Under the pieces are notes generated by a model. The model saw nothing but the letters and a program-made list of their open reading frames with translations. It was not told the origin of the DNA and made no database searches. The translations under genes were made by a program, and so were the position numbers. From assembly GCA_016215655.1 (NCBI GenBank), contig JACRIT010000085.1, positions 39,007 to 103,006 of the forward strand: 64,000 bases of DNA, given 5' to 3'. Source of the stretch: Acidimicrobiia bacterium (GTDB taxonomy: Bacteria > Actinomycetota > Acidimicrobiia > Spongiisociales > UBA11373). How positions within the stretch are numbered: position 1 is the stretch's first letter; each line of letters opens with the position of its first letter. This document shows, piece after piece, positions 1,711-52,964 of this stretch.

Positions 1711-1751
1711 TCGAGCGGAGAGTACCGGAGTCGGGACTCACCGCCCCCCGA

Positions 1752-6719: not shown

Positions 6720-6810
6720 GGCCGGAGGCTAGGTCAGGGACACGCGCCCGGAATCGCCGGCATCTGCGGTGGCCCCGTCCGCCGCCATCCGGCGTCTCCG
6801 CACGGCAGCC

Positions 6811-8181: not shown

Positions 8182-8185
8182 TCCA

Positions 8186-8704
8186 TCACCCCCACAGGTT
8201 CCGCAGTGTGATCTGAGATCGAACCCGCCGCTCGGTACCCCCGACGACGACGGCAAACTCCAGCGTGACCGCGGTCACCGCGCTCGGCTCGGCGGCGTCA
8301 TAGAAGAAGGTGGTGCCGGGCAGCGCCAGATCGGTTGCCGGGTGCTCGGTGATGCCGCCTGCGGAACGCTCCAGCATCCCGTCCACCACGCGCCACGTGA
8401 CGAGCTCCGCAGTTCCCACGACGCCGTCACGATTGTCATCGAGCCAGATCGTGAAGCTGTCCGGCTGGGCCACCGTGACCTCGATGGCCCGTCTGATGTC
8501 GCGCCCGATCAGGTTCTCGAGATCACGAATCTCCGAGGATGACACGTCATCGCGCTGGTGGAGCCGATCCGTCCGGGTCACGCTCGAGAACCAGGTGGTC
8601 ATCAAGGCGCCGAGGATCGCGATCCCCATCATGACCACCCCCAATTCGACGAGGGAGGCGCCCCGCTCATCCGGTCGCATCCGGGACATCCTGTTCACCC
8701 GCAT
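8186..8704 (-). CDS. TadE-like pseudopilin (prepilin-type N-terminal domain protein)
   Basis: N-terminus MRVNRMSRMRPDERG|ASLVELGVVMMGIAILGALM has Gly at -1 and Glu at +5 (prepilin cleavage/methylation signature). GGAG lies 6 nt upstream of the ATG at 8704; the start overlaps the upstream stop (ATGCGGGTGA). Alternative ATGs at 8689 and 8680. Confidence 0.55.
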   Translation of the reverse strand: MRVNRMSRMRPDERGASLVELGVVMMGIAILGALMTTWFSSVTRTDRLHQRDDVSSSEIRDLENLIGRDIRRAIEVTVAQPDSFTIWLDDNRDGVVGTAELVTWRVVDGMLERSAGGITEHPATDLALPGTTFFYDAAEPSAVTAVTLEFAVVVGGTERRVRSQITLRNLWG

Positions 8705-10020
8705 GACGACTCCACGGACGGCACGAAGAACCGGTTCACCATGGCTGACGTCGTCAGGCCCGACGGGTACAGCACCGAGGATCCACCCGAGAAGAGCACA
8801 TCGCCGGTCCCGTTCGGTCCGCCGGCGATGAGCGAGCCGATCCACGATGACGTGCCGCTCAGGACGATGCCGCCGTAGGGAGCAAAGGCCACTCCCTGAA
8901 CGGTGCCCGCGCTCCCCCCACTCAGCTTGAGGGACTGAGCGGTGGTTCCGAACGAGACCAATCCGCCTTCGGTGAACTGCTCGACCCGGTACTGGCCCCC
9001 TCCGGAGAACTCGATGAGGGTGTCGGCTACCAGCGGGCTGGCCTGCGAGGTGACGACCGCCCCACGCACCTTGATCGCGTTCGTGGCGTACACCGGCCCC
9101 GCCCCGTTGATGGTGACCGCGCCCTCGAACTCGATGGTTCCGTTCACGTAGATCGGTGCCGTGATCGTCTGGTTGCTGAAACGAACCGTTCCGGAGTACA
9201 CCGCACCGGCTTGGGCCGACGATCGGAGCTCGGCCCTCCACGCTTCGACGTCCGTGGCGGGCGGCATCGACACCACCACTCCGGCGTTCTGCTCGATGAT
9301 CCCCGCCACGTTCGCGGCCGTCGCCGTCGCCGTACCCCCCACCCGGATGTCGCCGTCGACCCGGGCTGTGCCGTCCTTGAAGTCGCCGTTCGCCAGGGCA
9401 GACGCGGTGTGCTGGCCGGCGCTCGATGACGCGGTGAAGGCACCACCGCTCATGGTCACATCGTCCATGGCGATCACCGCGGCATTGGGGAAGAAACCCG
9501 TGCCGACACGATCACCCGCGGCCGCAACCCGAGAGATGGTCGTTGACGCCTCATAGCTCCGTACCGCTCCCTCGAGGTTCCACTCGACGAAGACGACCAC
9601 CCGCCGCACGCCCGAGGACACGTCGGTGACATAGGTCCAGGTGGCGAAGGATGTGCCGGCCGTCTGCGCGCTCGCCCGTGCTGCCACCACCCCGGTGGGA
9701 CATACCACGAGCGGCTCGTCGGCGGCGATCCCGAAGGGCGCCCCGGCCAGGGCCGTGCCACTGCCGGTGAGATGCGGAGCTGCGGTGTCCACCGAGTACA
9801 GGGCGAGCTCCTCCCAACGGAGGGCCCGCGCCGCCTCGATCCGATCCGTCGCCAGGACGGTGGCCGCCTCCTGCATGCGGCTGTCCCGCGAGGACCGCAG
9901 GGCACCCCCGAGCACCGCGGTGAACATCACGAAACACAACGCGCTCAACATGAGCCCGGCGAGGAGTTCCACCACGGTGAACCCGCGATCGTCGCGCCGA
10001 AGCCGCCGCCAATGCCTCAT
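8695..10020 (-). CDS. type IV pilin-like / pseudopilin (prepilin-type N-terminal cleavage-methylation domain)
   Basis: N-terminus MRHWRRLRRDDRG|FTVVELLAGLMLSALCFVMF is a canonical class III signal (G at -1, F at +1, E at +5). 442 aa with Gly/Thr/Ser/Ala-rich beta-rich repeats (GTIEFEGAVTINGAG...). Confidence 0.6.
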   Translation of the reverse strand: MRHWRRLRRDDRGFTVVELLAGLMLSALCFVMFTAVLGGALRSSRDSRMQEAATVLATDRIEAARALRWEELALYSVDTAAPHLTGSGTALAGAPFGIAADEPLVVCPTGVVAARASAQTAGTSFATWTYVTDVSSGVRRVVVFVEWNLEGAVRSYEASTTISRVAAAGDRVGTGFFPNAAVIAMDDVTMSGGAFTASSSAGQHTASALANGDFKDGTARVDGDIRVGGTATATAANVAGIIEQNAGVVVSMPPATDVEAWRAELRSSAQAGAVYSGTVRFSNQTITAPIYVNGTIEFEGAVTINGAGPVYATNAIKVRGAVVTSQASPLVADTLIEFSGGGQYRVEQFTEGGLVSFGTTAQSLKLSGGSAGTVQGVAFAPYGGIVLSGTSSWIGSLIAGGPNGTGDVLFSGGSSVLYPSGLTTSAMVNRFFVPSVESSCG

Positions 10021-10112
10021 GCAGAGTTTGTCGGCAGCCGCCACTGCCGAGTTGAGGTACCGCCGCGCTCACACCCCGGTCCGACTGATCAAAGTCATGA
10101 TCCGCCCGGGGA

Positions 10113-12311
10113 CTAGTCCCTCTCACCCCCGCCGGGGAGCAGCCGGTAGGCGTCGTAGACCCCCTCGACCCCCCGCATCTCCTCAATGGCACGGTCGAGG
10201 GTGGCGATGTCGGACAACTCGATCTCGAACTTCAGCACGGCCACGCGATCCCGGCTCGTCACCGTCGACGACGAGACGATGTTGGCGCCGAGATCCGAAA
10301 GGGCCACGGTGACGTCGCGCAGCAACCGGGGCCGATCGAGGGCCTCTGCCTGGACGGCGGCACGGAAGGTGCCGGCGTGCTCGGCAGACCAGCTCACCTC
10401 GATCATGCGTTCCGATCGATCGACGAGCGATTCGACGTTCGTGCAGTCGGCGCGATGGATCGACACCCCCCGGCCGACGGTCACGTACCCCACGATGGCA
10501 TCTCCCGGAAGGGGGGTGCAGCAATGGGCGATCCGCACCAGCATGTCGTCCATGCCCTCCACCACGATCCCACCCGAGGGGCTGCCGCGCACCGGGAAGG
10601 CGGAAGGCGATGGCTCCTCGTCCTCCTGGCGCTCCGCCTCGGGGTGGACGAGGCGCACGAGGCGGTGCACCACCGTCTGCGGATTCGTGTTCCCGTCCCC
10701 GATGCCGACGAACATCGACTCGATGTCGCGGAACCCGAGCGAGTCGGCCACCTCGGCGAGCAACTCGTCGCGCTTGGCGGCGCCCAGGCCGAGACCCTCG
10801 CGGCGCAGCAGTTTGGCGATCTCCTCCCGGCCGTCGACGAGCGACTGCTCCCGCCGCTCCTGGGTGAACCAATGCCGGATCTTGGCGGCGGCACGCGAGG
10901 TACGGACGAACGACAGCCAGTCGCGCGACGGGGCGTCGGACTTCGAGGTGATCACCTCGACGATGTCACCCGACTCGAGACGGGTCGACAGTGGCACGAG
11001 GCGGCCGTTGACCCGCGCCCCGGTGCAGCGGTGCCCCACCTCGGTGTGCACGGCGTAGGCGAAGTCGATCGGGGTGGCCCCCCGCGGCAACACCTTCACG
11101 TGGCCGTTCGGCGTGAGGGCAAAGACCTCGTCGTCGTAGAGGTCGAGCTTGAGGCCGGCGAGGAACTCGGCCGGTGACTCGTAGTCATCGGCTCCATCGG
11201 CGAGATCCCCCGGCATCGTGAGATCCTCGGCGGTCGTTCCGCCCTCCTTGTACCTCCAGTGCGCCGCAATGCCCTGTTCGGCACGGTCGTGCATCTCCTT
11301 GGTGCGTATCTGCACCTCGAGCGGCTTGCGATCGGGACCGAGCACCGTCGTGTGCAGGCTCTGGTACAGATTGAACTTGGGCATCGCGATGTAGTCCTTG
11401 AACCTCCCCTGCACCGGAGGCCAGGTGGTGTGGATGATGCCGAGGGCTGCGTAGCAATCGGCGACCTCCTTCGTGATGATGCGGATGCCGAGGAGGTCAT
11501 GGATCTCGTCGAAGGTGCGCCCGCCATCGACCATCTTGCGATAGATGGAGTAGATGTGCTTGGGGCGCCCCGTGACTTCGGCGGTGATCCCGGCATCCAC
11601 GAGCATCTGCTCCACTCCCGTGATGACCGAGCGGAGAAAGGCGTCCCGCTCCGGAGCGCGCGCCCGCATGAGCTCCACGATCTCGGCGTAGCGACGGGGA
11701 TGGAGAATGGCGAAGCAGCGGTCCTCCATCTCGTGCTTGATCTCCTGGACACCGAGCCGGTGGGCAAGCGGCGCGTAGACCTCGAGGGTCTCGGCGGCGA
11801 TGCGCTGCTGCTTCTCCGGGGAAAGGGGGAAGATGGTGCGGACGTTGTGCAGGCGATCGGCGAGTTTGATGAGCAGGACGCGCACGTCGCGCGCCATGGC
11901 GATGACCATCTTGCGGATCGTCGCCGCTTGCTGGTCCTCCCGGCTCGAGTACCGCACCCGATCGAGCTTCGTGACCCCATCGATCAGATACGCAACGGTG
12001 GCGCCAAACTCTCGCTCCACGTCGACGAGCGTGATGCGGGTGTCCTCCACCGTGTCGTGGAGGATCGCCGCGGCCACGGTTTCCGCATCCAATCCGTAGT
12101 CCGCCAGCATCGACGCCACCGCCAGGGGATGAGTGATGTACGGCTCGCCGGTCTTGCGGAACTGCCCCTCGTGTGCCGCGGCGGCGATGTCGTACGCCCG
12201 GTGGATGAGGGTGTCCGACTCGTGGGGGTGATGGCGCCGGAACCGATCCAGCACGGGACCCAGCTCGGAGATGACCGCGTCCTCCGGCCGCGAGCCGGCC
12301 TCAATCGACAC
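10113..12311 (-). CDS. relA: bifunctional (p)ppGpp synthetase/hydrolase
   Basis: 732 aa with HD domain (HDTVEDT), RelA/SpoT synthetase domain, TGS and ACT domains. Confidence 0.9.
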   Translation of the reverse strand: MSIEAGSRPEDAVISELGPVLDRFRRHHPHESDTLIHRAYDIAAAAHEGQFRKTGEPYITHPLAVASMLADYGLDAETVAAAILHDTVEDTRITLVDVEREFGATVAYLIDGVTKLDRVRYSSREDQQAATIRKMVIAMARDVRVLLIKLADRLHNVRTIFPLSPEKQQRIAAETLEVYAPLAHRLGVQEIKHEMEDRCFAILHPRRYAEIVELMRARAPERDAFLRSVITGVEQMLVDAGITAEVTGRPKHIYSIYRKMVDGGRTFDEIHDLLGIRIITKEVADCYAALGIIHTTWPPVQGRFKDYIAMPKFNLYQSLHTTVLGPDRKPLEVQIRTKEMHDRAEQGIAAHWRYKEGGTTAEDLTMPGDLADGADDYESPAEFLAGLKLDLYDDEVFALTPNGHVKVLPRGATPIDFAYAVHTEVGHRCTGARVNGRLVPLSTRLESGDIVEVITSKSDAPSRDWLSFVRTSRAAAKIRHWFTQERREQSLVDGREEIAKLLRREGLGLGAAKRDELLAEVADSLGFRDIESMFVGIGDGNTNPQTVVHRLVRLVHPEAERQEDEEPSPSAFPVRGSPSGGIVVEGMDDMLVRIAHCCTPLPGDAIVGYVTVGRGVSIHRADCTNVESLVDRSERMIEVSWSAEHAGTFRAAVQAEALDRPRLLRDVTVALSDLGANIVSSSTVTSRDRVAVLKFEIELSDIATLDRAIEEMRGVEGVYDAYRLLPGGGERD

Positions 12312-42266: not shown

Positions 42267-42301
42267 GGGGGTGAGGATACGAGGGCTACAATCGCTGCTC
42301 C

Positions 42302-42373
42302 GGGCGCTTAGCTCAGCGGGAGAGCGCTGCCTTCACACGGCAGAGGCCACTGGTTCAATCCCAGTAGCGCCCA
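42302..42373 (+). tRNA. tRNA-Val (anticodon CAC)
   Basis: GGGCGCTTAGCTCAGCGGGAGAGCGCTGCCTTCACACGGCAGAGGCCACTGGTTCAATCCCAGTAGCGCCCA; clover-leaf with 7-bp acceptor stem; CCA not encoded. Confidence 0.9.
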
Positions 42374-42405
42374 CGGCGGCAACCCTCGCGTCGCTCGGGT
42401 CGCGG

Positions 42406-42445
42406 GCCGCCCCTCGGGCGGCTAGGGCGAATCCTTCGGATTCGC
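42406..42445 (+). terminator. twin hairpins downstream of tRNA-Val(CAC)
   Basis: GCCGCCC-ctc-GGGCGGC and GCGAATCC-TTCG-GATTCGC; the same pair recurs downstream of tRNA-Val(GAC) at 52079-52119. Confidence 0.4.
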
Positions 42446-42572
42446 CTGGCTGACGCAAACCCCGACCGGCGAACAGCCGAGCAGGCTTCAGAGCCCGAAC
42501 CCACAGCCTCACCACGGCCGCTCTCCGAGCGTTGGGTTCCGGATAGCCTGCCGCCCGGAGGAGGACCACCGC

Positions 42573-43970
42573 ATGACCGACTTCGACTTCATCGTGATCG
42601 GATCGGGTCCGGCCGGCGAGAAAGCCGCGGCGCAGGCCGCCTACTTCGGAAAGAAGGTCGCCATCGTCGAGCGCGACGAGCGGCTCGGAGGCGCCCCGGT
42701 CAATCGCGGCGGCATCCCCGCCAAGACCCTGCGCGAAACCGCCCTCTACATGACCGGGTTCGGACGCAGCGACCTCTACGGCGTCGAGGTCGCCTTCGGA
42801 TCGGAGGTCACGCTCGACCGGCTGCGCACCCGAGCCGCCGCCGAATCCGAGCGCGCCGGCGAAACCGTACGGCAGAACCTCGATCGTCATGGCATCGCCC
42901 TGCTCCGCGGGTCGGGCCGTCTCGAAGCCGATCACACGGTGGCGGTGACCGCTGCCGACGGCACCGTCACCCGACACCGCGGGGAGGTCGTGCTGATCGC
43001 CACGGGTTCCCACCCCTTCCATCCGCCCGGTATCCCCTTCGACGATCCCGACGTCGAGGACTCCGACTCGATCCTCATCCTGGATCGCATCCCGCGCAGC
43101 ATCGTCGTGGTGGGCGGGGGTCCGGTGGGATGCGAGTACGCCTCGATCTTCGCCGCCCTCGGCGCCCAGGTGACGCTGGTCGACATGGCCGACCGCCTGC
43201 TCCCCTTCCTGGACGCGGAGATCTCGCGGACCCTGGCCGACTGCTTCGCCGACTCCGGAATCCGGGTGGTCCTCGGGTCGCCACCCGCCGGGATCCGGCG
43301 TGGGGCGAAGGGTCTCGAGGTCACGGTCGCCGATGAAGTACAGCACCCCGACCGGGTGCTGTTCGTGGCGGGACGCACGGGCAATACCGATGGCATCGGC
43401 CTGGCCGAGGCCGGGGTGCAACTCGACGACCGGGGTCGCATTCAGGTCGATGCCGAGTACCGCACCACGGTTCCCTGGGTGTTCGCCGCTGGAGACGTGA
43501 TCGGTCCTCCCGCCCTCGCCTCGGTGTCTGCGGAGCAGGGCCGGGTGGCGGCGTGCCACGCCTTCCACATCCCGTTCAAGGAGTCGGTGGACCAACTCCC
43601 ACCGTTTGGCATCTACTCGATTCCCGAGGTCGGCGGCGTCGGCCTGACCGAAGAGCAAGCGGCAGCTACGGGCATCGACTACTCCGTTGGCACGTACGAG
43701 TTCGCCGACAACCCGCGCAGTCGCATCGCCGGCACGACCTACGGCATGATCAAGCTGGTGCTGCGCCGCGACGATCGGCGACTTCTCGGTGTGCACATCG
43801 TCGGCGAGGAAGCCGCCGAGTTGATCCACATCGGCCAGGCGGTGATCCACGCCGGGGAGACGACCGATCGGTTCATCGACACGACCTTCAACATCCCCAC
43901 CCGCAGCGAGGCGTACAAGTACGCCGCCTACGACGCCTTGCGGCGGCTGGCGGCGCCCCGGCCCGGGTGA
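42573..43970 (+). CDS. FAD-dependent pyridine-nucleotide oxidoreductase (soluble transhydrogenase SthA-like, lacks the redox-active Cys pair)
   Basis: GSGPAGEKAA (FAD), GGGPVGCEYA (NAD), C-terminal dimerisation domain; GGAPVNRGGIPAK replaces the CxxxxC disulfide; GGAGGAGG RBS. Confidence 0.8.
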   Translation: MTDFDFIVIGSGPAGEKAAAQAAYFGKKVAIVERDERLGGAPVNRGGIPAKTLRETALYMTGFGRSDLYGVEVAFGSEVTLDRLRTRAAAESERAGETVRQNLDRHGIALLRGSGRLEADHTVAVTAADGTVTRHRGEVVLIATGSHPFHPPGIPFDDPDVEDSDSILILDRIPRSIVVVGGGPVGCEYASIFAALGAQVTLVDMADRLLPFLDAEISRTLADCFADSGIRVVLGSPPAGIRRGAKGLEVTVADEVQHPDRVLFVAGRTGNTDGIGLAEAGVQLDDRGRIQVDAEYRTTVPWVFAAGDVIGPPALASVSAEQGRVAACHAFHIPFKESVDQLPPFGIYSIPEVGGVGLTEEQAAATGIDYSVGTYEFADNPRSRIAGTTYGMIKLVLRRDDRRLLGVHIVGEEAAELIHIGQAVIHAGETTDRFIDTTFNIPTRSEAYKYAAYDALRRLAAPRPG

Positions 43971-44062
43971 ACGCCCCGTCCTCGGCCCGGGTCGTCGCCG
44001 GCAAGCCGCGCCGCGGCGCCGCGGCGGGTACGCTGCCTGCTCTTCCACGGAGGATGCACCGA

Positions 44063-44230
44063 TGAGCCAGAACCATCCCGAATCCACCGACCCCGTGTCG
44101 CCGGACAACAAGCGCATTGCCGACGGCATCGAGGCCGAGGTTGGCATCCCGGTGAGCATCGAGGCGGAGATGCTGCTGGAGGCCGCGGAGCTCGAAGAGG
44201 CCGAATACGGGGAACCGGCTCCGGACTGAT
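44063..44230 (+). CDS. small acidic protein (55 aa), absent from the ORF track
   Basis: GGAGG 7 nt upstream of ATG; MSQNHPESTDPVSPDNKRIADGIEAEVGIPVSIEAEMLLEAAELEEAEYGEPAPD; high GC3. Confidence 0.4.
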
Positions 44231-44292
44231 CGGCACCGGCTCGCTCGCCGGGGCGGTCACATCGGAACGCTCGGGTTGCCCCCGGGACCTGC

Positions 44293-44880
44293 TCAGCTTC
44301 CGAGCTGCCGGATGACGTCGGCAATGCGTTTCGCCCTGGTCTCGGGACGCTTGGCGATGCGCACCGCCCACAGATGCTGCTTCTTGGCGGAGTCGGGCAA
44401 TCCCGCAAAGGCGGCCTGAGCCGCCGGTGAGGCCGAGAGGGCGGCCTCGAGATCGGCGGGAATGATCAGCGAGTCGACCTCATCGGTCTGCGACCACGAA
44501 CCGTCCGCCTGGGCCTGGTCGATCACCGCCTGGCCGATTGCGGTCATCAGCCCCTCCTCCTGCAATCGGGCAATGCGCGACTTGTTCGACGCCGACCAGA
44601 GACCGCCCTTGCGTCGCGGAGAGAACCACTGGATCTTGCGGTCGTCGTCCACCCGGCGGGACTGACTGTCGATCCACCCGAAGCACAGCGCCTCCTCCAC
44701 CAGATCGTCATACAGAGGGCCCTCGAGGGCGCTCGACTTCTTGCGGTGGACGATCCACAGGCCTTCCTTCCGCCCGGAGTTGGACATGAGCCAGCTCCTC
44801 CACTCGGCCCGGGTCGAGGGGGTGAACACCTCCTTGCCGTTGGGCGACGCGGGCGGTGCCAGGTCGGCTGTTCTGGCCAC
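44293..44880 (-). CDS. YdeI/OmpD-associated family protein
   Basis: WRSWLMSNSGRKEGLWIVHRKK...EEALCFGWIDSQSRRVDDDRKIQWFSPRRKGGLWSASNKSRIARL. Confidence 0.8.
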   Translation of the reverse strand: MARTADLAPPASPNGKEVFTPSTRAEWRSWLMSNSGRKEGLWIVHRKKSSALEGPLYDDLVEEALCFGWIDSQSRRVDDDRKIQWFSPRRKGGLWSASNKSRIARLQEEGLMTAIGQAVIDQAQADGSWSQTDEVDSLIIPADLEAALSASPAAQAAFAGLPDSAKKQHLWAVRIAKRPETRAKRIADVIRQLGS

Positions 44881-44960
44881 GACGACACGATAGGAGTCGA
44901 CGCCGACCCCCGGCCTCTACCCGGAGCGACTCGGCAACGCGGCGACGGAAGCAGTCGCTT

Positions 44961-45428
44961 TCAGGGTCCGCCTTCGATCCAGCTGCGGTCCGAGCGCGCC
45001 AGTCGACTCGCGATCGCCTCCCAGCGCGCTTCGTCGAGCAGGATCGGACTGGCGAACTGCATGTTGCCGAAGATGAACGGTTTGCGGCCGCGAAACGCCC
45101 GGTCCCGGCGCAGGTCGTCGCCGGGTACCCACCGGCGCAGAGGGCGGACCTTCCAGGGCACGAAGGCATGCCGGTCCGCCGCCGAGCGAATCGCGCTTCC
45201 CCGGATGCGGGCGACGGCGACGATGTTGCCCCACCCGCCATCGAACTGGAACACCGCGGCACGATCCCCTAGCCCGATCCGATCCGCATGATGGAAGACC
45301 GATGTGCGGTCGCGCAGCCGGTCCAACAGGATGTCGTATCCCCGGGTCTCCGGGTGGCCCCGATAGTCGTAGGTCCAGTTCGGGTTCTTGGGGTTGTTGC
45401 CGAACAGGTAGAAGTCCGTCACCACCAA
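44961..45428 (-). CDS. hypothetical protein (155 aa; PUA/EVE-like fold suspected, unverified)
   Basis: High GC3 and typical codon usage; no motif I can assign with confidence. Confidence 0.5.
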   Translation of the reverse strand: MVVTDFYLFGNNPKNPNWTYDYRGHPETRGYDILLDRLRDRTSVFHHADRIGLGDRAAVFQFDGGWGNIVAVARIRGSAIRSAADRHAFVPWKVRPLRRWVPGDDLRRDRAFRGRKPFIFGNMQFASPILLDEARWEAIASRLARSDRSWIEGGP

Positions 45429-45521
45429 AGGATACGCCGACCCACCGGGTGCGGCGGGTTCGCTCCTCCCGCTATCGGACGCCGGCGGGACGATCGCGGC
45501 GGAGGACCCGATCCGTCGCCA

Positions 45522-47090
45522 TCAGCCGCTCGTCGCCACCTCGGCCGCGCGGAAGCGGAAGTACGACCACGTGATCGCGGTCACGGTGGCATATGCCCCC
45601 GCCAGCGCCAGCACCACCACCACTCCGGTCTCGCCGAACGCATCTCCGTACTCACCGTGGGGATTGATGAGCAGGTGGAAGAACAGGTAGGTGGACACGC
45701 CGAACAGCGCCAGCCACGCCGCACGGTTCCACTCGACGATCGACCGGCCGTCCATGAACGTGAGGGGGACCATGTTGTACATGACGCCTTCGATGCCCCC
45801 GACGAAGAGCACCGCAAGCACTCCCTCGGCGAGGTCACTGCCCCACCCTTCGCCCCCGCCGGAGCGCACCACCCCGAGACCGAACCACGCCACGATGCCG
45901 AGACCGAGGAGCGCCAGTGCCGGATAGAAGGCGGAGCGTCCCGACTGCGCCCGATCGAGCGCCTGCGGCACGAGGATCGCCGTGGACGCCACGAACCCAT
46001 AGACGATGCCCGGCTCGAATTCGAGGGCGCGAGTCACGATCACACAGCCGATGGCGGCGAAGAGGGCAACGGTGTGGACGCGGACCGCGGCGGGCAACCC
46101 GAGTCTGCGCCGGGCGAACCAGGCAGCCCCTCCCTCGCCCACGAGGGTCAGCACGCCCAATCCGGCCATGAGTGAGACGAACAACACCGCACTCGCCCGA
46201 TTGAGCCCGAATCCGGGGCTGAGAAACCCGTACACGCCGCCGGTGAGGACGAGCAGGACACCGGCTCGTACCGCCACCGGAATGGATCCGGTGAACCAAC
46301 TCCCCCACCGCGCCACCCGGCCGCGGACGCCCCGCCACCACCCCTCGATCGTGTCCCGATTCGACTCGAGGGTGCTGTTGAACACGGCCGAGGTCACTCC
46401 GAAGATCAGCAGCAGGAGCAGGGTGAGCATCAGATTGGTGAGGATCACCCCCAGCGACGACTTCACCTTGTCGGGACCGGGAGTGGTGGCGATGAACCCG
46501 CCGCCGGGACCGCCCGCCCCCGGGGACTCCTGTGGCGCCAGCACCTGTGGCGCGGTGGTCGTCGTGATCGGCACCGGCAGGGTGGTGGTGGTCGGTACCG
46601 TCGTCGGGGCCGTGGCCGGAGCAGGTTCGGAGAGCTTCGGAGGCAGGACCGGGGGCAGGGTCGTCGTCGTCGTGGTGGTCGTCGTGGTCGTCGTGGTCGT
46701 GGTCGTCGGAGGGGCAGGATCGATGGTGTAGCCGGCAGATGCCTGCTGACACGGACCGAATGGCGTACACATGCGGGCGTACACCATGTGCCGCCCGAGA
46801 GGCGCGCCACCGGGAGTCGGAGCGGTGGCCGAACCGGTGCACGACACGCCGTCCATGGTCGCCGAGGCATAGGCAGGGTTCGTCGGACTGTCCCAGTGGA
46901 AGGTGACCGTGGCTCCACCGTTGAAACACTCGGGTCCGCTCTGCGAGAAGAAGGAGGCGGTGAAGGAGACCCCGGCAGGACCGTGGTTGGGAGTCAGGGT
47001 CAGCGAGTTCGCCGCCCCGGCAGAGGGCGCGACGATCAGCACCATCGCCACGCAGGCGACCACGGCGAGGACCCTCCCGACCCGCGACAT
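45522..47090 (-). CDS. secreted Cys-containing domain plus T16-PP linker plus polytopic membrane domain protein
   Basis: Signal peptide MSRVGRVLAVVACVAMVLIVAPSAGA|ANS, ~110-aa domain with 6 Cys, 16 consecutive Thr then Pro-rich segments, ~8 C-terminal TM helices; GAGGAGGG RBS before ATG 47090. Confidence 0.6.
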   Translation of the reverse strand: MSRVGRVLAVVACVAMVLIVAPSAGAANSLTLTPNHGPAGVSFTASFFSQSGPECFNGGATVTFHWDSPTNPAYASATMDGVSCTGSATAPTPGGAPLGRHMVYARMCTPFGPCQQASAGYTIDPAPPTTTTTTTTTTTTTTTTLPPVLPPKLSEPAPATAPTTVPTTTTLPVPITTTTAPQVLAPQESPGAGGPGGGFIATTPGPDKVKSSLGVILTNLMLTLLLLLIFGVTSAVFNSTLESNRDTIEGWWRGVRGRVARWGSWFTGSIPVAVRAGVLLVLTGGVYGFLSPGFGLNRASAVLFVSLMAGLGVLTLVGEGGAAWFARRRLGLPAAVRVHTVALFAAIGCVIVTRALEFEPGIVYGFVASTAILVPQALDRAQSGRSAFYPALALLGLGIVAWFGLGVVRSGGGEGWGSDLAEGVLAVLFVGGIEGVMYNMVPLTFMDGRSIVEWNRAAWLALFGVSTYLFFHLLINPHGEYGDAFGETGVVVVLALAGAYATVTAITWSYFRFRAAEVATSG

Positions 47091-47201
47091 GTCCCTCCTC
47101 GGACGAAGCTGGCGCCCCCAACCCCGAGGATGGTACGCGACCCGCCACCTGCACGCGGACACCCCGGTCCGCTATCTTCTCGCCCCGAACGAGGAGGCGG
47201 G

Positions 47202-47657
47202 ATGTCCAAGGTCGAGCTGTACACACTCATTCACGTGCTGGCCGCCATCATCTGGGTGGGCGGCGCGGCCACGTCACAGGTGGTGGCCTTGCGGCTGAAG
47301 AAGGCGGATCCCGGCCATCGCCTCGGGTTCGCCAAGGACATGCGGTTCGTGGCGCAGTGGCTCTTCATCCCGTCGGCGGTCGTCGCCTTCGTGTTCGGCT
47401 CGCTCCTCGTGGAAGAGACACCCGCCTTCGGATACGACCAGACCTGGCTCGTGATCGGCAACACCGGGCTCCTGGTGGCGCTGCTCATCGCCGCCGGATA
47501 CCTGGTGCCGCACATCCGCAAGGCCATTCGACTCATGGAGTCGGGTCAGGGGGAGGCAGCAGGCGCCACGATGCGCCGAGTGACGGTCGGCGCCCGCCTC
47601 GTCGTGCTCATCCTGATCGTGATCGTGTGGGCAATGGTCGCAAAGCCGGGCCTGTAG
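47202..47657 (+). CDS. DUF2269-like 4-TM membrane protein (paralogue 1)
   Basis: MSKVELYTLIHVLAAIIWVGGAATSQVV...; AGGAGG RBS. Confidence 0.6.
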   Translation: MSKVELYTLIHVLAAIIWVGGAATSQVVALRLKKADPGHRLGFAKDMRFVAQWLFIPSAVVAFVFGSLLVEETPAFGYDQTWLVIGNTGLLVALLIAAGYLVPHIRKAIRLMESGQGEAAGATMRRVTVGARLVVLILIVIVWAMVAKPGL

Positions 47658-47668
47658 GAGGGAACGCC

Positions 47669-48118
47669 ATGACACTCTTCGAAACCCTGAAGTTGCTCCA
47701 CGTGCTCGCGGCCGCCATCTGGGTGGGTGGCGGAGTCCTGCAGACGACGTACGTGGTGCGGTCGGTCCGCGCGGATGCAGCACACCGGCTCGGCGTCGCC
47801 CGCGACATGGTGTTCCTCGGATCCAAGGTGTTCGGGCCGGTCTCGGGTCTGGCGTTCATCTCCGGGGTATGGATGGTGATCGAACGACCCGCATTCGCCT
47901 TCGGCGACGCCTGGATCGTCATCGGCCTCGCCGGCTTCGCCCTTTCCAGCATCGTGGGCGGCGCGGTCTTCAGCCCCAAGGGGAAGGCACTGCTGGCCGA
48001 ACTCGAGGCCGGCACCTCCGGAGAGGCACCGCTCCGGGCGATCATCCGGGCGGCGTTCGTCGATCAGGCGATCCTGCTCGTGGTGGTCTGGGCGATGGTG
48101 GTCGGGCCCGGGGCCTAG
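47669..48118 (+). CDS. DUF2269-like 4-TM membrane protein (paralogue 2)
   Basis: MTLFETLKLLHVLAAAIWVGGGVLQTTYVV...; about 40% identical to the upstream paralogue, 11-nt spacer. Confidence 0.6.
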   Translation: MTLFETLKLLHVLAAAIWVGGGVLQTTYVVRSVRADAAHRLGVARDMVFLGSKVFGPVSGLAFISGVWMVIERPAFAFGDAWIVIGLAGFALSSIVGGAVFSPKGKALLAELEAGTSGEAPLRAIIRAAFVDQAILLVVVWAMVVGPGA

Positions 48119-48125
48119 GGAAGCC

Positions 48126-49952
48126 TCAGTCCGACGTGTAGAGCGCCTCGATCTCCGCGGCGAAGTGCTCGGTGACCCGGTTGCGCTTCACCTTCAGGGT
48201 CCCGGTCAGCTCGCCACTCTCGATGGACAGCTCGCGGGGCAGGATCGCGAACTTCTTCACCCCGTTCACCTGAGCGACCTTCTTGTTGATCCCGTCGATC
48301 GTCGCCTGGATCTCGCGGCGGATCTCGGGCGAGAGGTGAAGGGGACCGCTCACGTTGTGTCGATCGGCAAATGCCCCGGCCGCCACCGGGTCGAGCGTCA
48401 CCAGGGCCGTGAGGTACTTGCGCCGGTCACCGATCAGCACCGCTTCCGAGACCAGCGGATTCTCCTTGATGCCGGTCTCGATGTCCTTGGGGGCGATGTT
48501 CTTGCCCCCGGCCGTGATGATGATGTCCTTCTTCCGACCCGTGATGAACAGGAACCCGTCCGCATCGAACGTGCCGATGTCGCCGGAGAGCAGCCAGCCG
48601 TCCTTGAGTGTCTCGGCGGTGGCTTCCGGGTTCTTGAAGTAGCCGGCGAACACGTTGCCGCCCTTGAGCAGGACCTCACCGTCCTCGGCGAGCCGCACTT
48701 CGGCGCCCGGGTAGGCGATGCCGACACTGCCGAACTTGGTCTTCCCGGGCCGATTGAACGTCGTCGGCCCAGACCCCTCGGACTGGCCATAGACCTCGAT
48801 GATCGGGAGGTGGAAGCCGGCGAAGAACTCGAGCAACTCGGGGGAGATCGGCGCGGCTCCGGAGATGGCGCCACGCACCCGGTCCATGCCGATGCCCGTC
48901 CTCACCTTCTTGTGCACCACCCCGGCGAGGACCAGCTTGGCGGCAAGGGCCGCCGACGGCTTGCCGCCCCGGTTCTCGATCGCCACGACCTTGCGTCCCA
49001 CCACCTGCGCCCAGGCGGCGAGTTTCGCCTTGACCCCGGTGGCGTGGCCGAGCTCTGCGGCGACCCCGGCGTGGAACTTCTCCCACACCCGGGGAACCGC
49101 AAAGAACACGGTCGGCTTGACCTCCTTGAGGTTGTCGAGGAGAGCCTCGAGAGACTCGGCGAAGTAGATCGGATACCCGATGCTGATCGGGATGTGGACC
49201 GAGAACATCTGCTCGGCGATGTGGCTCAGCGGCAGATACGAGACCGATGAGTCGTCCGAGGTGAGGGGCATGACACCGTAGGAGTTGTCGGCGGTCCACG
49301 TGAGATTGGAGTGGGTGAGCATGACCCCCTTCGGGGGCCCGGTGGTGCCGGAGGTGTAGATGAGGGTCGCCAGCCCACCCGGGGTGAGGGACGCCAGCCG
49401 GGCATCGAATTCGGCATCGGGGACACCGTTGCCCATCGCCAGGAACTCGTCCCAGGTGATGACCTGGGCGTCGTCGATCTCGGGGGCTCCGCGCATGGTG
49501 ACGATCCACTTGAGGGCGGGCAGGTCACGCCGCACCGCCAGGACCTTGTCCAATTGCACCTTGTTCTCGACGAGGATCACCGGTGCCTCGGCGTGACCGG
49601 TGATGTACTGGACTTCCTCGGGCGACGAGGTGGCGTAGATGCCCGCGGGAGCGCCGCCCACCGCCATCGTGGCGAGATCGAGGATCACCCACTCGGGGCG
49701 ATTGAACCCGAGAATGGTCACCTTGGACTCGAACGGGAATCCGACGGCGAGGAGGGCCTTTCCGGCGCGCCGCACCTGGGCGGCGTATTCGGTCCACGAG
49801 GTCGAGCGGTACTCGCCGTCCACCTTCTCGAAGTACGCAGGGCTGCCAGGGCGCTTCTCGGCTTGAGCGAACAACCGGGCGGGAATCGTGTCGGCCACCG
49901 GGACCTCCTCGCAGTCGGCGGCAATCGTACACGGGGGGGTCCTTGTCCCCAC
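48126..49952 (-). CDS. fadD: long-chain fatty-acid--CoA ligase (AMP-dependent synthetase)
   Basis: AMP-binding motif IYTSGTTGPPKGVMLTH, GYGQSE-like motif, C-terminal KVKR...; start may be internal (GTG near VADTIPARLF). Confidence 0.85.
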   Translation of the reverse strand: MGTRTPPCTIAADCEEVPVADTIPARLFAQAEKRPGSPAYFEKVDGEYRSTSWTEYAAQVRRAGKALLAVGFPFESKVTILGFNRPEWVILDLATMAVGGAPAGIYATSSPEEVQYITGHAEAPVILVENKVQLDKVLAVRRDLPALKWIVTMRGAPEIDDAQVITWDEFLAMGNGVPDAEFDARLASLTPGGLATLIYTSGTTGPPKGVMLTHSNLTWTADNSYGVMPLTSDDSSVSYLPLSHIAEQMFSVHIPISIGYPIYFAESLEALLDNLKEVKPTVFFAVPRVWEKFHAGVAAELGHATGVKAKLAAWAQVVGRKVVAIENRGGKPSAALAAKLVLAGVVHKKVRTGIGMDRVRGAISGAAPISPELLEFFAGFHLPIIEVYGQSEGSGPTTFNRPGKTKFGSVGIAYPGAEVRLAEDGEVLLKGGNVFAGYFKNPEATAETLKDGWLLSGDIGTFDADGFLFITGRKKDIIITAGGKNIAPKDIETGIKENPLVSEAVLIGDRRKYLTALVTLDPVAAGAFADRHNVSGPLHLSPEIRREIQATIDGINKKVAQVNGVKKFAILPRELSIESGELTGTLKVKRNRVTEHFAAEIEALYTSD

Positions 49953-50243
49953 CCCGGGGCGGCGCGCGGACCTTCGGCCCTACACCACGCCGCCACGACG
50001 CCGCAGGGTGATGCCAAGCCGGTGGGAGGATCCGGGTGCAACCGGGCGCCGCCAACAACGGCCCCAGGGTCCGGGCGCACGAACGAGCCTCACACGGTGC
50101 GTCCACCGCGGGCGGGAACTCGCGATGCACTCGCTGCAGGATGCGCCGTTGAGGCACCGCCGGACCGTCTCGTGCGGGACCGCTGTCCCGGGAGCACCAG
50201 ACGGAGACGGACCTCCCTCCGGGGTTCCTCCTCCGGAACCAGC

Positions 50244-50271
50244 GGGGCGCCACTCTCCGGGGTGGCGCCCC
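50244..50271 (-). terminator. 10-bp GC stem hairpin 22 nt downstream of the M23 peptidase gene
   Basis: GGGGCGCCAC-tctccggg-GTGGCGCCCC. Confidence 0.4.
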
Positions 50272-50292
50272 GTCGCGTCACCGATCAGACGA

Positions 50293-51423
50293 TCAGGAGC
50301 ACGACACCAACGGCGTCAGATGGAGCACGGCGGCGAGGCGGGCGCGCGTGGCACGACCGACCACGCCGTCCATGAACAGGCCGTTGGCATTCTGGAAGGC
50401 GCGCACGGCTGCCGTGGTCTTCGAACCGAAGATCCCGTCCGCCGCCCCGACATCGAGGCCCACCGCCTTGAGCAAGCCCTGGAGTTCGGCGACATCGCCA
50501 CCGAGCGAGCCCTGGCGCAGCGAGCGTCCGTCGGGATCGAGCACCGATGCCCGGGAGGCGAGCGCCACGAGCTCGGCGACTTCGGCCCGGGTCATGCTCC
50601 CCACGACCCCATCGGAGGCAAGGCTCACCTCGGTCTGGAATCCGCGCACCGCACCGAGAGTCCGCGATCCGAAGATGCCATCGATCGGACCGGGGGCATG
50701 GCGGAAGGCGGCGAGGAACTCCTGCAACTGGCGCACCGCATCGCCGGCCGCGCCCACCTTGATGAGCCCGGAAGTGGAGAGCAGGGTGGTGACATCGCCG
50801 ACCCGGGTGATCCCGCAGTGTGCCCTGCCTTCGGCGGCAAGGAGCGCATCGTGGGGATTCACCAGGACACCTTCGGGGTCGTATAGCTCGAAGTGAAGAT
50901 GGGGTCCCGTGTTCTCGGCGCTGCCGCTGTCTCCCACCCAACCGATGAGATCCCCGGCAGCGACGTGGGTGCCGAGAGCGATCTCGGGTGCGATCCCCCA
51001 GGCGAGGCCGTCGTCGGTGCCGGGAGTGTCGTTGTTGAGGTGGATGTACCACGATTCCCACCCATCGTCGTGGGTGATGACCACCGTGCAGCAGCGTTCG
51101 GGATTGAGGTCGTTGGGATCCTGGCTCCAGTTGATCCAGGTCACGGTTCCCGCAGCCGCGGCCACCACGGGGGTCAGCTTCGCCGCCATGAGATCCTGGG
51201 CGTGGTGCTCACCAACGCCACGCGCCGCCCAGAACCAGTCCTCGTACCAGTACGAACCGACGACGGGAAAGGCGAGCGGGTAGTCGACCATGTCGCCGTA
51301 GGCGTGCGCCGACCCATCGAACGGGGCCTCGTGATTGGCGCTCGCCGGCGCCGCCATGCCGACGACCAACCCGAGCACGACGGCGGTGATGGTCGTCCGT
51401 CCGGAGACGCGGTTCGGTGGCAC
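50293..51423 (-). CDS. secreted M23-family peptidase with three peptidoglycan-binding (PG_binding_1) repeats
   Basis: Signal peptide; HAQDLMAA...GDSGSAENTGPHLHFE (M23 HxxxD / HxH); 3x ~60-aa repeats with GxxGxxVxxLQ and DGIFGSxT. Confidence 0.8.
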   Translation of the reverse strand: MPPNRVSGRTTITAVVLGLVVGMAAPASANHEAPFDGSAHAYGDMVDYPLAFPVVGSYWYEDWFWAARGVGEHHAQDLMAAKLTPVVAAAAGTVTWINWSQDPNDLNPERCCTVVITHDDGWESWYIHLNNDTPGTDDGLAWGIAPEIALGTHVAAGDLIGWVGDSGSAENTGPHLHFELYDPEGVLVNPHDALLAAEGRAHCGITRVGDVTTLLSTSGLIKVGAAGDAVRQLQEFLAAFRHAPGPIDGIFGSRTLGAVRGFQTEVSLASDGVVGSMTRAEVAELVALASRASVLDPDGRSLRQGSLGGDVAELQGLLKAVGLDVGAADGIFGSKTTAAVRAFQNANGLFMDGVVGRATRARLAAVLHLTPLVSCS

Positions 51424-51564
51424 GGCAGCAACTCCTCACAAGGACATTGGGCTTCCTCCTTCTTCCATCGGCGCGCTTTGGCCGCACCTGAGCCCTGATC
51501 GGGACCCTTCGACGGATGGCGGGGAGCCGTTCTCCCCTGGTGCGGGCTGCCGACCGGAGGCGCG

Positions 51565-51984
51565 ATGGCCGGGAACCGAGGAGGACGCGTGAAGCGAAGG
51601 GTGCCGGTCGCGATGATCCTGGTTGCGATGGGCATGGTGGCGTGCTCGTCGCCCACCGCGGTGATCGTGTCGATCGAGGCCGCCGCAGCCGCGGACCTGC
51701 TCGGGGAGGATCCCGACGCCGTGGTACTCGACATCCGGACTCCGCAGGAGTACGCCGAGTCGCGTATCGCCGGATCGATGAACATCGACTTCTATGCCGA
51801 CGACTTCTCGACACGGCTCGACGCCCTCGATCGCGACGTCACCTACGTGATCTACTGCCGCTCGGGCAACCGAACGACCGCGGCGCTGGACGTCTTCCGC
51901 GACCTCGGCTTCACCTCGGTGTACGCCGTCGAAGGTGGGATTCAGGCCTGGGAGGCCACGGGATTGGCGGTGGAGCGGGGCTAG
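51565..51984 (+). CDS. rhodanese-like domain (lipo)protein
   Basis: Active-site loop YCRSGNRT; N-terminal signal with LVAMGMVAC|SS. Confidence 0.8.
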   Translation: MAGNRGGRVKRRVPVAMILVAMGMVACSSPTAVIVSIEAAAAADLLGEDPDAVVLDIRTPQEYAESRIAGSMNIDFYADDFSTRLDALDRDVTYVIYCRSGNRTTAALDVFRDLGFTSVYAVEGGIQAWEATGLAVERG

Positions 51985-52121
51985 GACCGGTTTCTGCTGG
52001 GGTCGATCCACGGTCGAGTCGTGCTTCCCGGGAACCCGAAGGGTTCCCGACAAACTCGCAAGCCGCCGCGGATCGCCAGGCGAATCCGAAGGATTCGCCG
52101 AAGCCGCCCGAAGGGCGGCCG

Positions 52122-52193
52122 TGGGCGCTACTGGGATTGAACCAGTGACCTCTTCCGTGTCAGGGAAGCGCTCTCCCGCTGAGCTAAGCGCCC
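52122..52193 (-). tRNA. tRNA-Val (anticodon GAC)
   Basis: Revcomp GGGCGCTTAGCTCAGCGGGAGAGCGCTTCCCTGACACGGAAGAGGTCACTGGTTCAATCCCAGTAGCGCCCA; identical to the CAC copy outside the anticodon arm. Confidence 0.9.
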
Positions 52194-52220
52194 GCAGGCC
52201 AGGCCCCGTGGCCTGCCCCG

Positions 52221-52292
52221 AGGCGGCGCCCGGAATTGAACCGGGGTAAAGGGTTTTGCAGACCCTTGCCTGAACCACTCGGCCACGCCGCC
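52221..52292 (-). tRNA. tRNA-Cys (anticodon GCA)
   Basis: Revcomp GGCGGCGTGGCCGAGTGGTTCAGGCAAGGGTCTGCAAAACCCTTTACCCCGGTTCAATTCCGGGCGCCGCCT. Confidence 0.85.
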
Positions 52293-52323: not shown

Positions 52324-52399
52324 TGGAGCGGACGACCGGTCTCGAACCGGCGGCCTTCACCTTGGCAAGGTGACGCTCTACCAACTGAGCTACGTCCGC
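52324..52399 (-). tRNA. tRNA-Gly (anticodon GCC), CCA encoded
   Basis: Revcomp GCGGACGTAGCTCAGTTGGTAGAGCGTCACCTTGCCAAGGTGAAGGCCGCCGGTTCGAGACCGGTCGTCCGCTCCA. Confidence 0.9.
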
Positions 52400-52432: not shown

Positions 52433-52861
52433 TCAGGAACCGGTGGATCCGAATCCGGCGGGGCCCCGATCCGACTCCTCGAGCGCCTCCACCACCTCGA
52501 AGTCGACACTCACCACCGGTACGACGACGAGCTGGGCGATGCGGTCCCCGCGTTCGATGGATACCGGCTCCGCGCCGAGATTGACCAGGATGATGGCGAG
52601 TTCACCCCGATAGCCGCTGTCCACGATCCCGGGGGCATTGACGATGGCGATCCCCGACCGCAGCGCCAGACCGGAGCGGGGGGCCACGAGACCCACGTAG
52701 CCTTCGGGGATGGCCACCGCCATACCGGTGGGGACGAGCCGGCGCTCCCCCGGTGCCAGCACCACCGCCTCGCGGGCGGGGAGATCGACTCCGGCATCGC
52801 CGGGGCGGGCATGCTTCGGCACGGGGAGATCGGGGTCGAGGCGCTGCAAGGGGATTCGCAT
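52433..52861 (-). CDS. dut: dUTP diphosphatase
   Basis: MRIPLQRLDP...GDAGVDL...RSGLALRSGIAIVNAPGIVDSGYRGE...; five dUTPase motifs; 142 aa. Confidence 0.9.
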   Translation of the reverse strand: MRIPLQRLDPDLPVPKHARPGDAGVDLPAREAVVLAPGERRLVPTGMAVAIPEGYVGLVAPRSGLALRSGIAIVNAPGIVDSGYRGELAIILVNLGAEPVSIERGDRIAQLVVVPVVSVDFEVVEALEESDRGPAGFGSTGS

Positions 52862-52964
52862 TCGGTCGATTATCGCCTTCCGCCGAGGAGGCGGCACCGG
52901 AAGGGGAAATGGCGGACAAACCGCCGCCGCTTGAGCAATATCACTTCCGGGTCGATGATGACCC

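Follow-up and report, generated by a model that had tools for sequence, protein, structure and literature searches.

In Salmonella, the paralogous tufA and tufB genes lie in inverse orientation on one chromosome and are kept near-identical by non-reciprocal recombination (PMC5485169). Inversion between the two tuf genes is possible but costly, and it is not fixed (PMC6735719). A comparable pair of inverse-oriented paralogues, the subject of this report, is present in a 64-kb stretch of a high-GC Acidimicrobiia genome (contig JACRIT010000085.1; this whole stretch is termed the window, and searches for the repeated module within the genome covered it). Two tRNA-Val genes, of the CAC and GAC isoacceptors, face each other across a 9.7-kb segment of protein-coding genes, and each is followed by a trailer of GC-rich hairpins. 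As in the tuf pair, the paralogues are inversely oriented, and comparative sequence points to conversion between them. Unlike tuf, the unit concerned is approximately 125-150 nucleotides (nt) rather than 1185 nt, the spacing is 5-13 kb rather than 762 kb, and the tRNA-Val unit includes a non-coding trailer and, between its ends, an anticodon arm in which differences are putatively maintained by selection. The account that is considered probable here is that two old, functional tRNA-Val genes converge around a conserved chromosomal block, that their inverted tRNA-plus-trailer units are homogenised by gene conversion, and that the hairpins serve as terminators or 3'-end structures.

Other classes of element have features in common with the locus. 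It resembles tRNA-gene islands in the involvement of tRNA-Val 3' ends and in small direct 3'-end duplications at two of the loci retrieved for comparison (L092 and L103), but differs from them in that the repeats of the window are inverted and unaccompanied by an integrase, and in that the segment has native composition and a core that is conserved in relatives. Inverted repeats at both ends are reminiscent of invertible segments, but there is neither a second orientation nor an invertase in the segment. Short, perfect, GC-rich palindromes in variable mosaics 3' of genes recall repetitive extragenic palindromes and bacterial interspersed mosaic elements (REP/BIME); unlike these, the palindromes here are not dispersed but confined, over 64 kb, to the trailers of the two tRNA-Val genes, and the family is restricted to one lineage and one tRNA. 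Since defining features of tRNA islands, invertible segments and REP/BIME elements were looked for and are missing, the locus belongs to none of these classes. A search of the literature for tRNA-specific precedents yielded nothing directly comparable. Judged from its sequence, the locus would work like a pair of converting paralogues equipped with hairpin terminators, and does not represent a new kind of system.

An old, convergent pair of tRNA-Val genes

Related or metagenome loci and contigs retrieved for comparison are given L-numbers (L001, L092, L104, and so on). The locus was assigned to the Acidimicrobiia by a scan with the fadD-like protein encoded in the segment, and the informative loci were found through homologues of SthA and of a 317-amino acid (aa) gene product encoded next to dut. 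Both tRNA-Val genes are present together in three genomes: that of the window; its closest relative, a single 46-kb Joint Genome Institute contig (L092 and L097) with DNA identity of 82-87% and protein identity of 73-95%; and the more distant L104, with protein identity to the window of 50-87%. The surrounding region is core chromosome. Left of the segment, relA, secDF, ruvAB, pdxST and thrS were judged from product length and gene order, and to the right dut, nrdR, lexA, dapF, miaA, miaB, rny and recA were recognized by homology to annotated relatives.

The inverted orientation of the two genes, as given in the preliminary description of this DNA, was confirmed with ARAGORN and Rfam, each gene having 73 positions. 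Five of the 73 positions (28, 31, 33, 40 and 46) differ between Val(CAC) and Val(GAC); positions 28 and 40 form a compensated anticodon-stem pair, 33 belongs to the anticodon, and 46 lies in the variable loop. That description had the tRNAs identical outside the anticodon arm, which is correct for four of the five differences but not for position 46. Its inverted-repeat modules are likewise real, although they are not continuous: a repeat finder returns one arm of 83 nt at 92% identity (42298-42380 and 52115-52197) and another of 46 nt at 93% (42405-42450 and 52075-52120), split by approximately 30 extra nt, the hpA' hairpin, in the CAC copy. The tRNA bodies are near-invariant across the class and the five isoacceptor differences are the same in all genomes sampled, which indicates that Val(CAC) and Val(GAC) are old paralogues and not the product of a recent duplication. 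Position 56, in the T-loop of Val(CAC), is A, as in Val(GAC), in precisely those three genomes whose tRNA-Val genes face each other, and G in L007 and L011.

The arrangement is the same wherever it can be followed. In the close relative, Val(CAC) (L092 9745-9817, +) and Val(GAC) (L097 9160-9232, -) converge as they do in the window, and this genome is collinear with the window, in the same orientation, from 31.4 to 64 kb. Its order is Zincin_1, Val(CAC), sthA, a 55-aa open reading frame (ORF), the membrane protein gene, two DUF2269 genes, fadD, M23 and rhodanese, continuing with five extra genes (3.48 kb), the Val(GAC)-Cys-Gly tRNA genes and dut. In L104 the tRNA-Val genes, at 3628-3700 (+) and 9130-9202 (-), are again convergent and lie 5.4 kb apart, enclosing a minimal block of membrane protein, two DUF2269 genes, fadD and M23; the flanks match those of the window, with HTTM/LapA/DUF4332 on the left and Cys-Gly-dut-nrdR on the right. 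The order dut-Gly-Cys-Val(GAC) is common to L005, L020, L095, L097, L103, L104 and L105. At the partial loci, this cluster faces M23/fadD or rhodanese (L005, L103, L095 and L105), and Val(CAC) faces sthA (L100). Polarity is thus uniform, with the sthA or membrane/DUF2269 side toward Val(CAC) and the M23/fadD/rhodanese side toward Val(GAC), and the opposite orientation of the block was found in none of the three genomes with both genes or the partial loci. Because the same convergent arrangement and polarity recur across genomes, the bracket formed by the two tRNA-Val genes must be ancient and fixed, and the segment's core ancestral.

The enclosed segment had been described as non-core cargo, which does not hold for the block that sits between the same two tRNAs, in the same orientation, in the close relative and in L104. 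Variable cargo does exist: the tRNA-proximal genes, and a central pair consisting of a YdeI-family gene and a gene for a 155-aa protein, differ among relatives while the core block is conserved. The variable parts are accordingly the slot at the CAC trailer (sthA and the 55-aa ORF), the slot at the GAC trailer, and the central YdeI/155-aa insert. The GAC-trailer slot may be empty, or it may contain rhodanese, either alone or with five genes, DUF2238 or a cyclase-type regulator. The window has no genes between rhodanese and this trailer (51985-52030); L097 has five sulfur/selenium-related genes at this place (5584-9060: Germane, cysteine desulfurase-like, Se/S carrier and two Sulf_transp), L095 has DUF2238 (9513-10335), and L105 has an epimerase fragment and an 809-aa cyclase/AAA_16/HTH protein (1735-4866). 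No recombinase was found in this slot in the window, L097, L095 or L105.

Composition does not set the segment apart. Its GC content is 0.67-0.69, within a window-wide range of 0.655-0.72, and GC at third codon positions (GC3) is 0.867, compared with 0.871 outside (Mann-Whitney p = 0.44). The skew of GC3 tracks the coding strand without reversing inside the segment; the effect of being in the segment is just +0.03, and that of the coding strand is dominant, so that the skew has little to say about a recent inversion and lends it no support. The compositional difference for which a comparison had been proposed is therefore absent in GC, GC3 and GC3 skew alike. The findings that the preliminary description had named as speaking against its proposal, namely a collinear arrangement in relatives, fixed and old tRNA-Val paralogues, and no compositional difference, are essentially those obtained.

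The tRNA-Val repeat has consequences for public data. Logan short-read contigs of related strains start or stop inside tRNA-Val, hp2 or tRNA-Gly (L093 1-22, L094 1-70, L099 1-76, L100 1-45 and L098 1-30), and because contigs break at the repeat, public assemblies cannot show a minority orientation. Breaks at tRNA-Val also affect the assembly and binning of metagenome-assembled genomes in this group.

Trailer hairpins and their likeness within genomes

The trailers are built from a small set of hairpins (hpA, hp1, hp2 and hp3; Table 1). In the window the CAC trailer has the order hpA'-hp1-hp2 and the GAC trailer hp1-hp2-Y-hp3, where Y is a spacer of approximately 30 nt. In the close relative the CAC trailer reads hp1-hp2-linker-(CCCACGGC)-hpA'' and the GAC trailer hpA-hp2-Y-hp3 followed by a truncated hpA/hp1/hp2 copy; the hpA that stands directly after this tRNA-Val(GAC) is intact (L097 9131). 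That both tRNAs are trailed by the same hairpin pair was correctly noted earlier, as hp1 and hp2 occur at both loci and nowhere else in 64 kb. The 19-nt core of hp2 is found at two places in the window, both of them Val trailers, against a chance expectation of 0.03. A covariance model of hp1-hp2, applied to the window with its filters switched off, gives the two trailers 79.5 and 77.6 bits, and the next best match in 64 kb, at 17.5 bits, is hp3. With default filters, the model matches the relative's approximately 33 kb at the trailers alone. Among the related Acidimicrobiia loci scanned, the module is present only at the relative's trailers, the remaining matches being contigs that had been retrieved with the hp2 21-mer. 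The hairpins are not the UUCG hairpins that they had been called, in that they lack canonical cUUCGg tetraloops and are instead perfect palindromes of 7 bp and 9 bp around CTC or TTC.

Aligned over 75 positions, the CAC and GAC trailers of the window have 41 in common, and the two of the relative have 38. The cross-paralogue pairs are closer, with 52/75 for window CAC against relative GAC and 53/75 for window GAC against relative CAC, than the orthologous pairs, with 40 and 45; across the four trailers of this clade the range is 38-53/75. In L104, the repeat arms are 75 nt (93%) and 53 nt (94%) long, and its CAC and GAC trailers agree at 50/75 positions (94% identity over 53 nt). Each consists of a GGCGGCC-GAAG-GCCGCC hairpin and repeats of the heptamer GCAATTS. 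Compared with the window trailers, those of L104 are identical at 7-9 of 75 positions, and shuffled sequences give a mean of 9.4; the two sets are, in other words, unrelated.

Trailers that are alike within a genome and unlike between lineages, together with A56 in the facing genomes, constitute a signature of concerted evolution. The comparisons indicate that the trailers and the 3' parts of the tRNAs evolve in concert in two clades, and the unit that appears to be homogenised begins near tRNA position 47 and reaches 50-80 nt into the trailer. Gene conversion is the mechanism that we infer. In the proposed scheme, a solo Val(CAC) gene faces, across the block, the Val(GAC) gene that closes a Gly-Cys-Val operon, and the 3' part of each tRNA with the first 50-80 nt of its trailer would constitute one inverted-repeat unit. 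Non-reciprocal intrachromosomal recombination would homogenise this unit, while selection would preserve the five differences in the anticodon arm and variable loop that define the Val isoacceptors. Gain and loss of genes would take place mainly in the slots adjoining the trailers, and the block itself would be non-mobile and keep its orientation.

Several observations weigh against this reading. The concerted pattern comes from only two independent clades, as no more than three genomes have both genes. The longest runs of perfect identity, 27, 30 and 25 nt, approach the minimum length for RecA-type recombination. The mosaic seen in the window and its relative could have arisen instead by independent deletions of single hairpins from an ancestral hpA-hp1-hp2 trailer, with no exchange after the split; in these two close-clade genomes, the order of hpA/hp1/hp2 gains and losses fits post-split exchange and independent deletions alike. 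Moreover, hp2 is 100% identical in all four copies, in two genomes that are approximately 15% diverged, which suggests selection on hp2 itself, beyond what conversion alone explains. A scan for canonical promoters and terminators made no call at either trailer, and the hairpins are not followed by a T run. It is important to note that the L104 result is independent of whether exchange or deletion is at work in the close clade.

As to what the hairpins do, terminators without a U-tract, formed by "I-shaped" or tandem hairpins, have been proposed for high-GC Actinobacteria. The Val trailers resemble these in having stable GC-rich hairpins, single or in tandem and without a T run, right after a highly transcribed gene; unlike those terminators, the hairpins of the Val trailers have a terminator role that is predicted only. 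Predicted folds of the trailers are very stable, with energies between -50.5 and -72.4 kcal/mol and z-scores between -1.8 and -6.8, and two G-U pairs in one long stem of L097 would become C-A mismatches on the opposite strand. In Rfam the tRNA alone passes threshold, and E-value scans of both trailers returned noise. In most of the lineages examined, tRNA-Val is closely followed by a GC-rich hairpin whose sequence differs from lineage to lineage, and such retention of presence but not of sequence is typical of what would be expected of terminators or 3'-end structures. A terminator or 3'-end-protecting role is also suggested by the siting of the hairpins where a stop or 3'-end barrier is needed, as on the GAC side, between convergent units. 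The stable U-tract-less hairpins would thereby terminate transcription, shield the 3' end of the tRNA transcript, or both; those on the CAC side would insulate sthA, and those on the GAC side would stop transcription in both directions, from the tRNA operon and from the convergent rhodanese gene.

If this account is correct, the locus is a natural example of tRNA isoacceptor 3' halves and non-coding trailers that co-evolve while selection separates the anticodon arms, and homogenisation can act on units of approximately 130 nt that lie 5-13 kb apart. For the calling of genomic islands, two tRNA genes with repeats around a segment need not mean an island; at this locus the bracket is old, and only the tRNA-proximal slots turn over. 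No major question is changed by the finding.

Alternative accounts of the repeats and the segment

Rather than being homogenised in place, hp1-hp2 (with or without hpA and hp3) might be a small non-autonomous mobile cassette, copies of which were inserted separately at tRNA-Val 3' ends; it would be REP/BIME-like, or flanked by attachment (att) sites and moved in trans by tyrosine integrases specific for tRNA-Val. This is judged unlikely, although several observations favour it. The distance between module and tRNA differs among the four copies, the module lying before or after hpA. In L092 (9813-9910), a 66-nt hp1-hp2-linker stands between 8-nt direct repeats of the tRNA 3' end (CCCACGGC, at positions 69 and 135) and is followed by a second hpA; in L103 (8971-9202), 72 nt of tRNA 3' end and trailer are directly duplicated at a distance of 158 nt; and the truncated second hpA/hp1/hp2 copy of L097 (8985-9045) is cut inside hp2 just before the 3.48 kb of extra genes. 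Integrases or their remnants adjoin Val(CAC) or Val(GAC) in L007, L011 and L020, and the exact hp2 21-mer is present in BIME-like arrays of unrelated metagenome contigs (L082, L084, L088 and L091). As regards the last point, a metagenome scan with the 21-mer produced 11 contigs, none of which has a tRNA adjoining, and by a rough estimate 11 matches are about what chance convergence of short perfect hairpins would give in such a collection; the matches are probably convergent hairpins and not relatives. Viral contigs gave 0 matches for hp2 or for the tRNA-Val 3' 22-mer. A mobile cassette would be expected to leave further copies, but there are none in the window or in the relative's 33 kb, under the filter settings given above. 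Pfam detects no transposase in the segment, which is the part examined for REP-associated tyrosine transposases (RAYT), and the window has no integrase of the L007 type. The same pattern in L104, formed there by unrelated sequence, would require a second cassette that also landed at both loci.

A variant of this idea, which we regard as quite unlikely, would make hp1-hp2 a tiny att-flanked element, mobile or mobilised by integrase in the manner of a cis-mobilizable element ("CIME-like"), and specific for the 3' half common to both tRNA-Val genes; its insertion at both inverted genes would create and renew the homology by which the 5-13 kb block recombines. Its footprints would then include the direct repeat of the tRNA 3' end around the cassette in L092, the partial trailer copies standing in tandem in L103 and L097, and the tRNA-Val integrases of related genomes. 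The integrases themselves support the earlier statement that tRNA-Val 3' ends serve as integration sites, as this is seen in other Acidimicrobiia. A full tyrosine integrase and an HTH_17 excisionase-like gene follow Val(CAC) in L007 (13832-16427), an integrase remnant follows Val(CAC) in L011 (18828-19253), and an integrase remnant and a PemK/MazF toxin gene follow Val(GAC) in L020 (701-1909). The three integrases have a common C-terminal DSxVxxMW motif and are 51-55% identical over aligned fragments of 69 and 132 aa; plausibly, they target the 3' half that both Val isoacceptors have in common.

Integration at the 3' end of a tRNA-Val gene also underlies the idea that the segment represents a genomic island, whether whole or decayed. 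In its favour, L007, L011 and L020 use tRNA-Val in this way, and relatives differ in sthA with the 55-aa ORF, in rhodanese and in the YdeI/155-aa pair. An island is nevertheless extremely improbable at this locus. The 17-mer at the tRNA-Val 3' end is present in the window only at the two genes, in inverted and not direct orientation, with no direct repeats of the attL/attR type. No recombinase domain was detected by Pfam in any of the 10 ORFs of the segment, and tblastn of the window and the close relative with the L007 tRNA-Val integrase returned nothing (best E-value 3.7; the flanks were not scanned for other recombinase families), so that the reported lack of an integrase or transposase in the segment is upheld. 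The core block, moreover, lies between the same two tRNAs even in genomes at about 70% protein identity, and sthA is a housekeeping equivalog. The island reading was rejected on its native composition, absence of integrase and conserved synteny.

Inversion of the 9.7-kb segment through the tRNA-Val modules, with both orientations present in the population, was a further proposal. Homologous inverted repeats of 123-153 nt are indeed present at the ends of the segment and their trailers show signs of exchange, such that a reciprocal crossover would invert the block, and the inverted tuf genes of Salmonella show both conversion and inversion (PMC5485169, PMC6735719). While the repeats could in this sense mediate inversion, the inverted orientation was seen in no genome: the three two-tRNA genomes have the block the same way round, and all partial loci agree. 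There is, further, no invertase gene in the segment by Pfam, and GC3 skew does not reverse. An invertible segment is therefore considered very unlikely, and old paralogues converting across a block of fixed orientation remain the preferred account.

Two sets of repeated sequence encountered in these comparisons are recorded for their own sake. The duplication in L103 takes in the last 25 nt of tRNA-Val(GAC) and the trailer hairpin, as repeats of 42 nt (100%) and 30 nt (93%) at a spacing of 158-160 nt, and looks like an att footprint whose copies enclose next to nothing. The hp2 21-mer, or a variant differing by 1-2 nt, forms tandem arrays in L082 (75-150), L084 (1890-1974), L088 (869-1001) and L091 (1704-1910 and 3391-3411); there it alternates with a second hairpin and fixed linkers, mostly after stop codons, on contigs that encode unrelated genes (e.g., Lon protease).

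Genes and signals of the segment

The features of the locus are collected in Table 1. The genes listed for the segment in the preliminary description are otherwise the right ones; the protein with the T16 linker is now identified as an FGLLP-motif membrane protein.

Table 1. Features of the tRNA-Val locus, in window coordinates
Feature	Position	Strand	Evidence and remarks
-10-like hexamer TACAAT	42287..42292	+	9 nt upstream of tRNA-Val(CAC); read from sequence
tRNA-Val(CAC)	42302..42374	+	ARAGORN; Rfam tRNA, 68 bits; identical in L092 and L104
hpA', decayed copy of hairpin module GGCAACCCTCGCKTCGCTCGGGTYGC	42378..42403	+	In this genome, CAC trailer only
hp1, CAC side, GCCGCCC-CTC-GGGCGGC	42406..42422	+	Perfect 7-bp hairpin
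hp2, CAC side, GGCGAATCC-TTC-GGATTCGCC	42426..42446	+	Perfect 9-bp hairpin
sthA, Si-specific NAD(P)+ transhydrogenase	42573..43970	+	NCBIfam NF003585 equivalog, 507.7 bits (cut-off 465)
55-aa acidic ORF	44062..44229	+	About 91% identical in L001, L092, L093 and L094
1.3-kb window-specific insert	44235..45519	-	YdeI/OmdA-family gene, 44293-44880; 155-aa gene, 44961-45428
FGLLP-motif membrane protein, poly-Thr linker	45522..47162	-	Ancestral core block; NCBIfam NF041501, 187.7 bits (cut-off 150)
Two tandem DUF2269 genes	47202-47657, 47669-48118	+	Core block; Pfam; conserved in L001, L002, L013, L092, L095, L100, L103 and L104
Long-chain acyl-CoA ligase (fadD-like)	48126..49952	-	Core block; Pfam AMP-binding and AMP-binding_C_3
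M23 peptidase with PG_binding_1 repeats	50293..51423	-	Core block; adjoins Val(GAC) in L005, L103 and L104
Rhodanese	51589..51984	+	tRNA-proximal variable gene, convergent with tRNA operon; Pfam; absent in L005, L103 and L104
hp3, CGGGAACCC-TTC-GGGTTCCCG	52029..52049	-	Perfect 9-bp hairpin; GAC trailer only; orthologous copy in L097
hp2, GAC side	52079..52099	-	Same sequence as CAC-side copy
hp1, GAC side, GCCGCCC-TTC-GGGCGGC	52103..52119	-	
tRNA-Val(GAC)	52121..52193	-	Last gene of Gly-Cys-Val cluster; ARAGORN, Rfam
tRNA-Cys(GCA)	52220..52292	-	ARAGORN, Rfam; conserved right flank
tRNA-Gly(GCC)	52324..52399	-	ARAGORN, Rfam; conserved right flank
dut	52433..52897		Conserved right flank, with tRNA-Cys and tRNA-Gly

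The hexamer TACAAT is the probable promoter element of the solo tRNA-Val(CAC) gene, and the stretch around it, GGATACGAGGGCTACAAT, is identical in the close relative (L092); a consensus promoter scan made no call at this position.

The first protein-coding gene after tRNA-Val(CAC), 200 nt downstream and on the same strand, is sthA. It had been characterized as encoding an SthA-like flavoprotein without the redox disulfide, but its product is an ordinary SthA, above the NCBIfam equivalog cut-off. Look-ups of two window proteins by exact sequence gave no match, although a 100% identical SthA is on record from a 104.7-kb contig of an Acidimicrobiia metagenome-assembled genome. The gene is not at this position in L104, and it is located elsewhere in other relatives, where its upstream neighbours are purC, SAF/BacA, carA or a GerE regulator (L095 3054-3238, L096 4757-4973, L101 9762-10000 and L102 9909-10000). 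Shortly before the sthA start there is a -10-like element of the TANNNT type in the loci that were examined for it (window, L092, L095, L096 and L100). From its own conserved element, as read from the sequences, and its varied surroundings, sthA would appear to relocate as a self-contained unit. The 55-aa ORF is always directly 3' of sthA in close relatives, and in L100, too, a gene of this length is called behind sthA, so that a genuine small gene linked to sthA is probable.

The window-specific insert is absent from L001 and L092, the two closest relatives, which have 90 bp at its place. Its YdeI gene matches Pfam OmdA at 3.9e-20, the 155-aa gene has no match in Pfam or NCBIfam, and GC3 of the insert genes, at 0.85-0.86, is as in the rest of the genome. 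The junctions of this insert and of the 3.48-kb insert of the relative were inspected, and neither microhomology nor repeats were evident.

Within the core block, fadD has orthologues that are 55-91% identical in Acidimicrobiia loci. Beyond it, rhodanese is followed by differing extra genes in L092/L097, L095 and L105. Homologues of the FGLLP membrane protein occupy the same place in L092, L103 and L104. In the window, a run of 16 threonines in this protein separates an N-terminal, extracellular-looking domain from the membrane domain, and the homology of the relatives' proteins is detected over the membrane part only.

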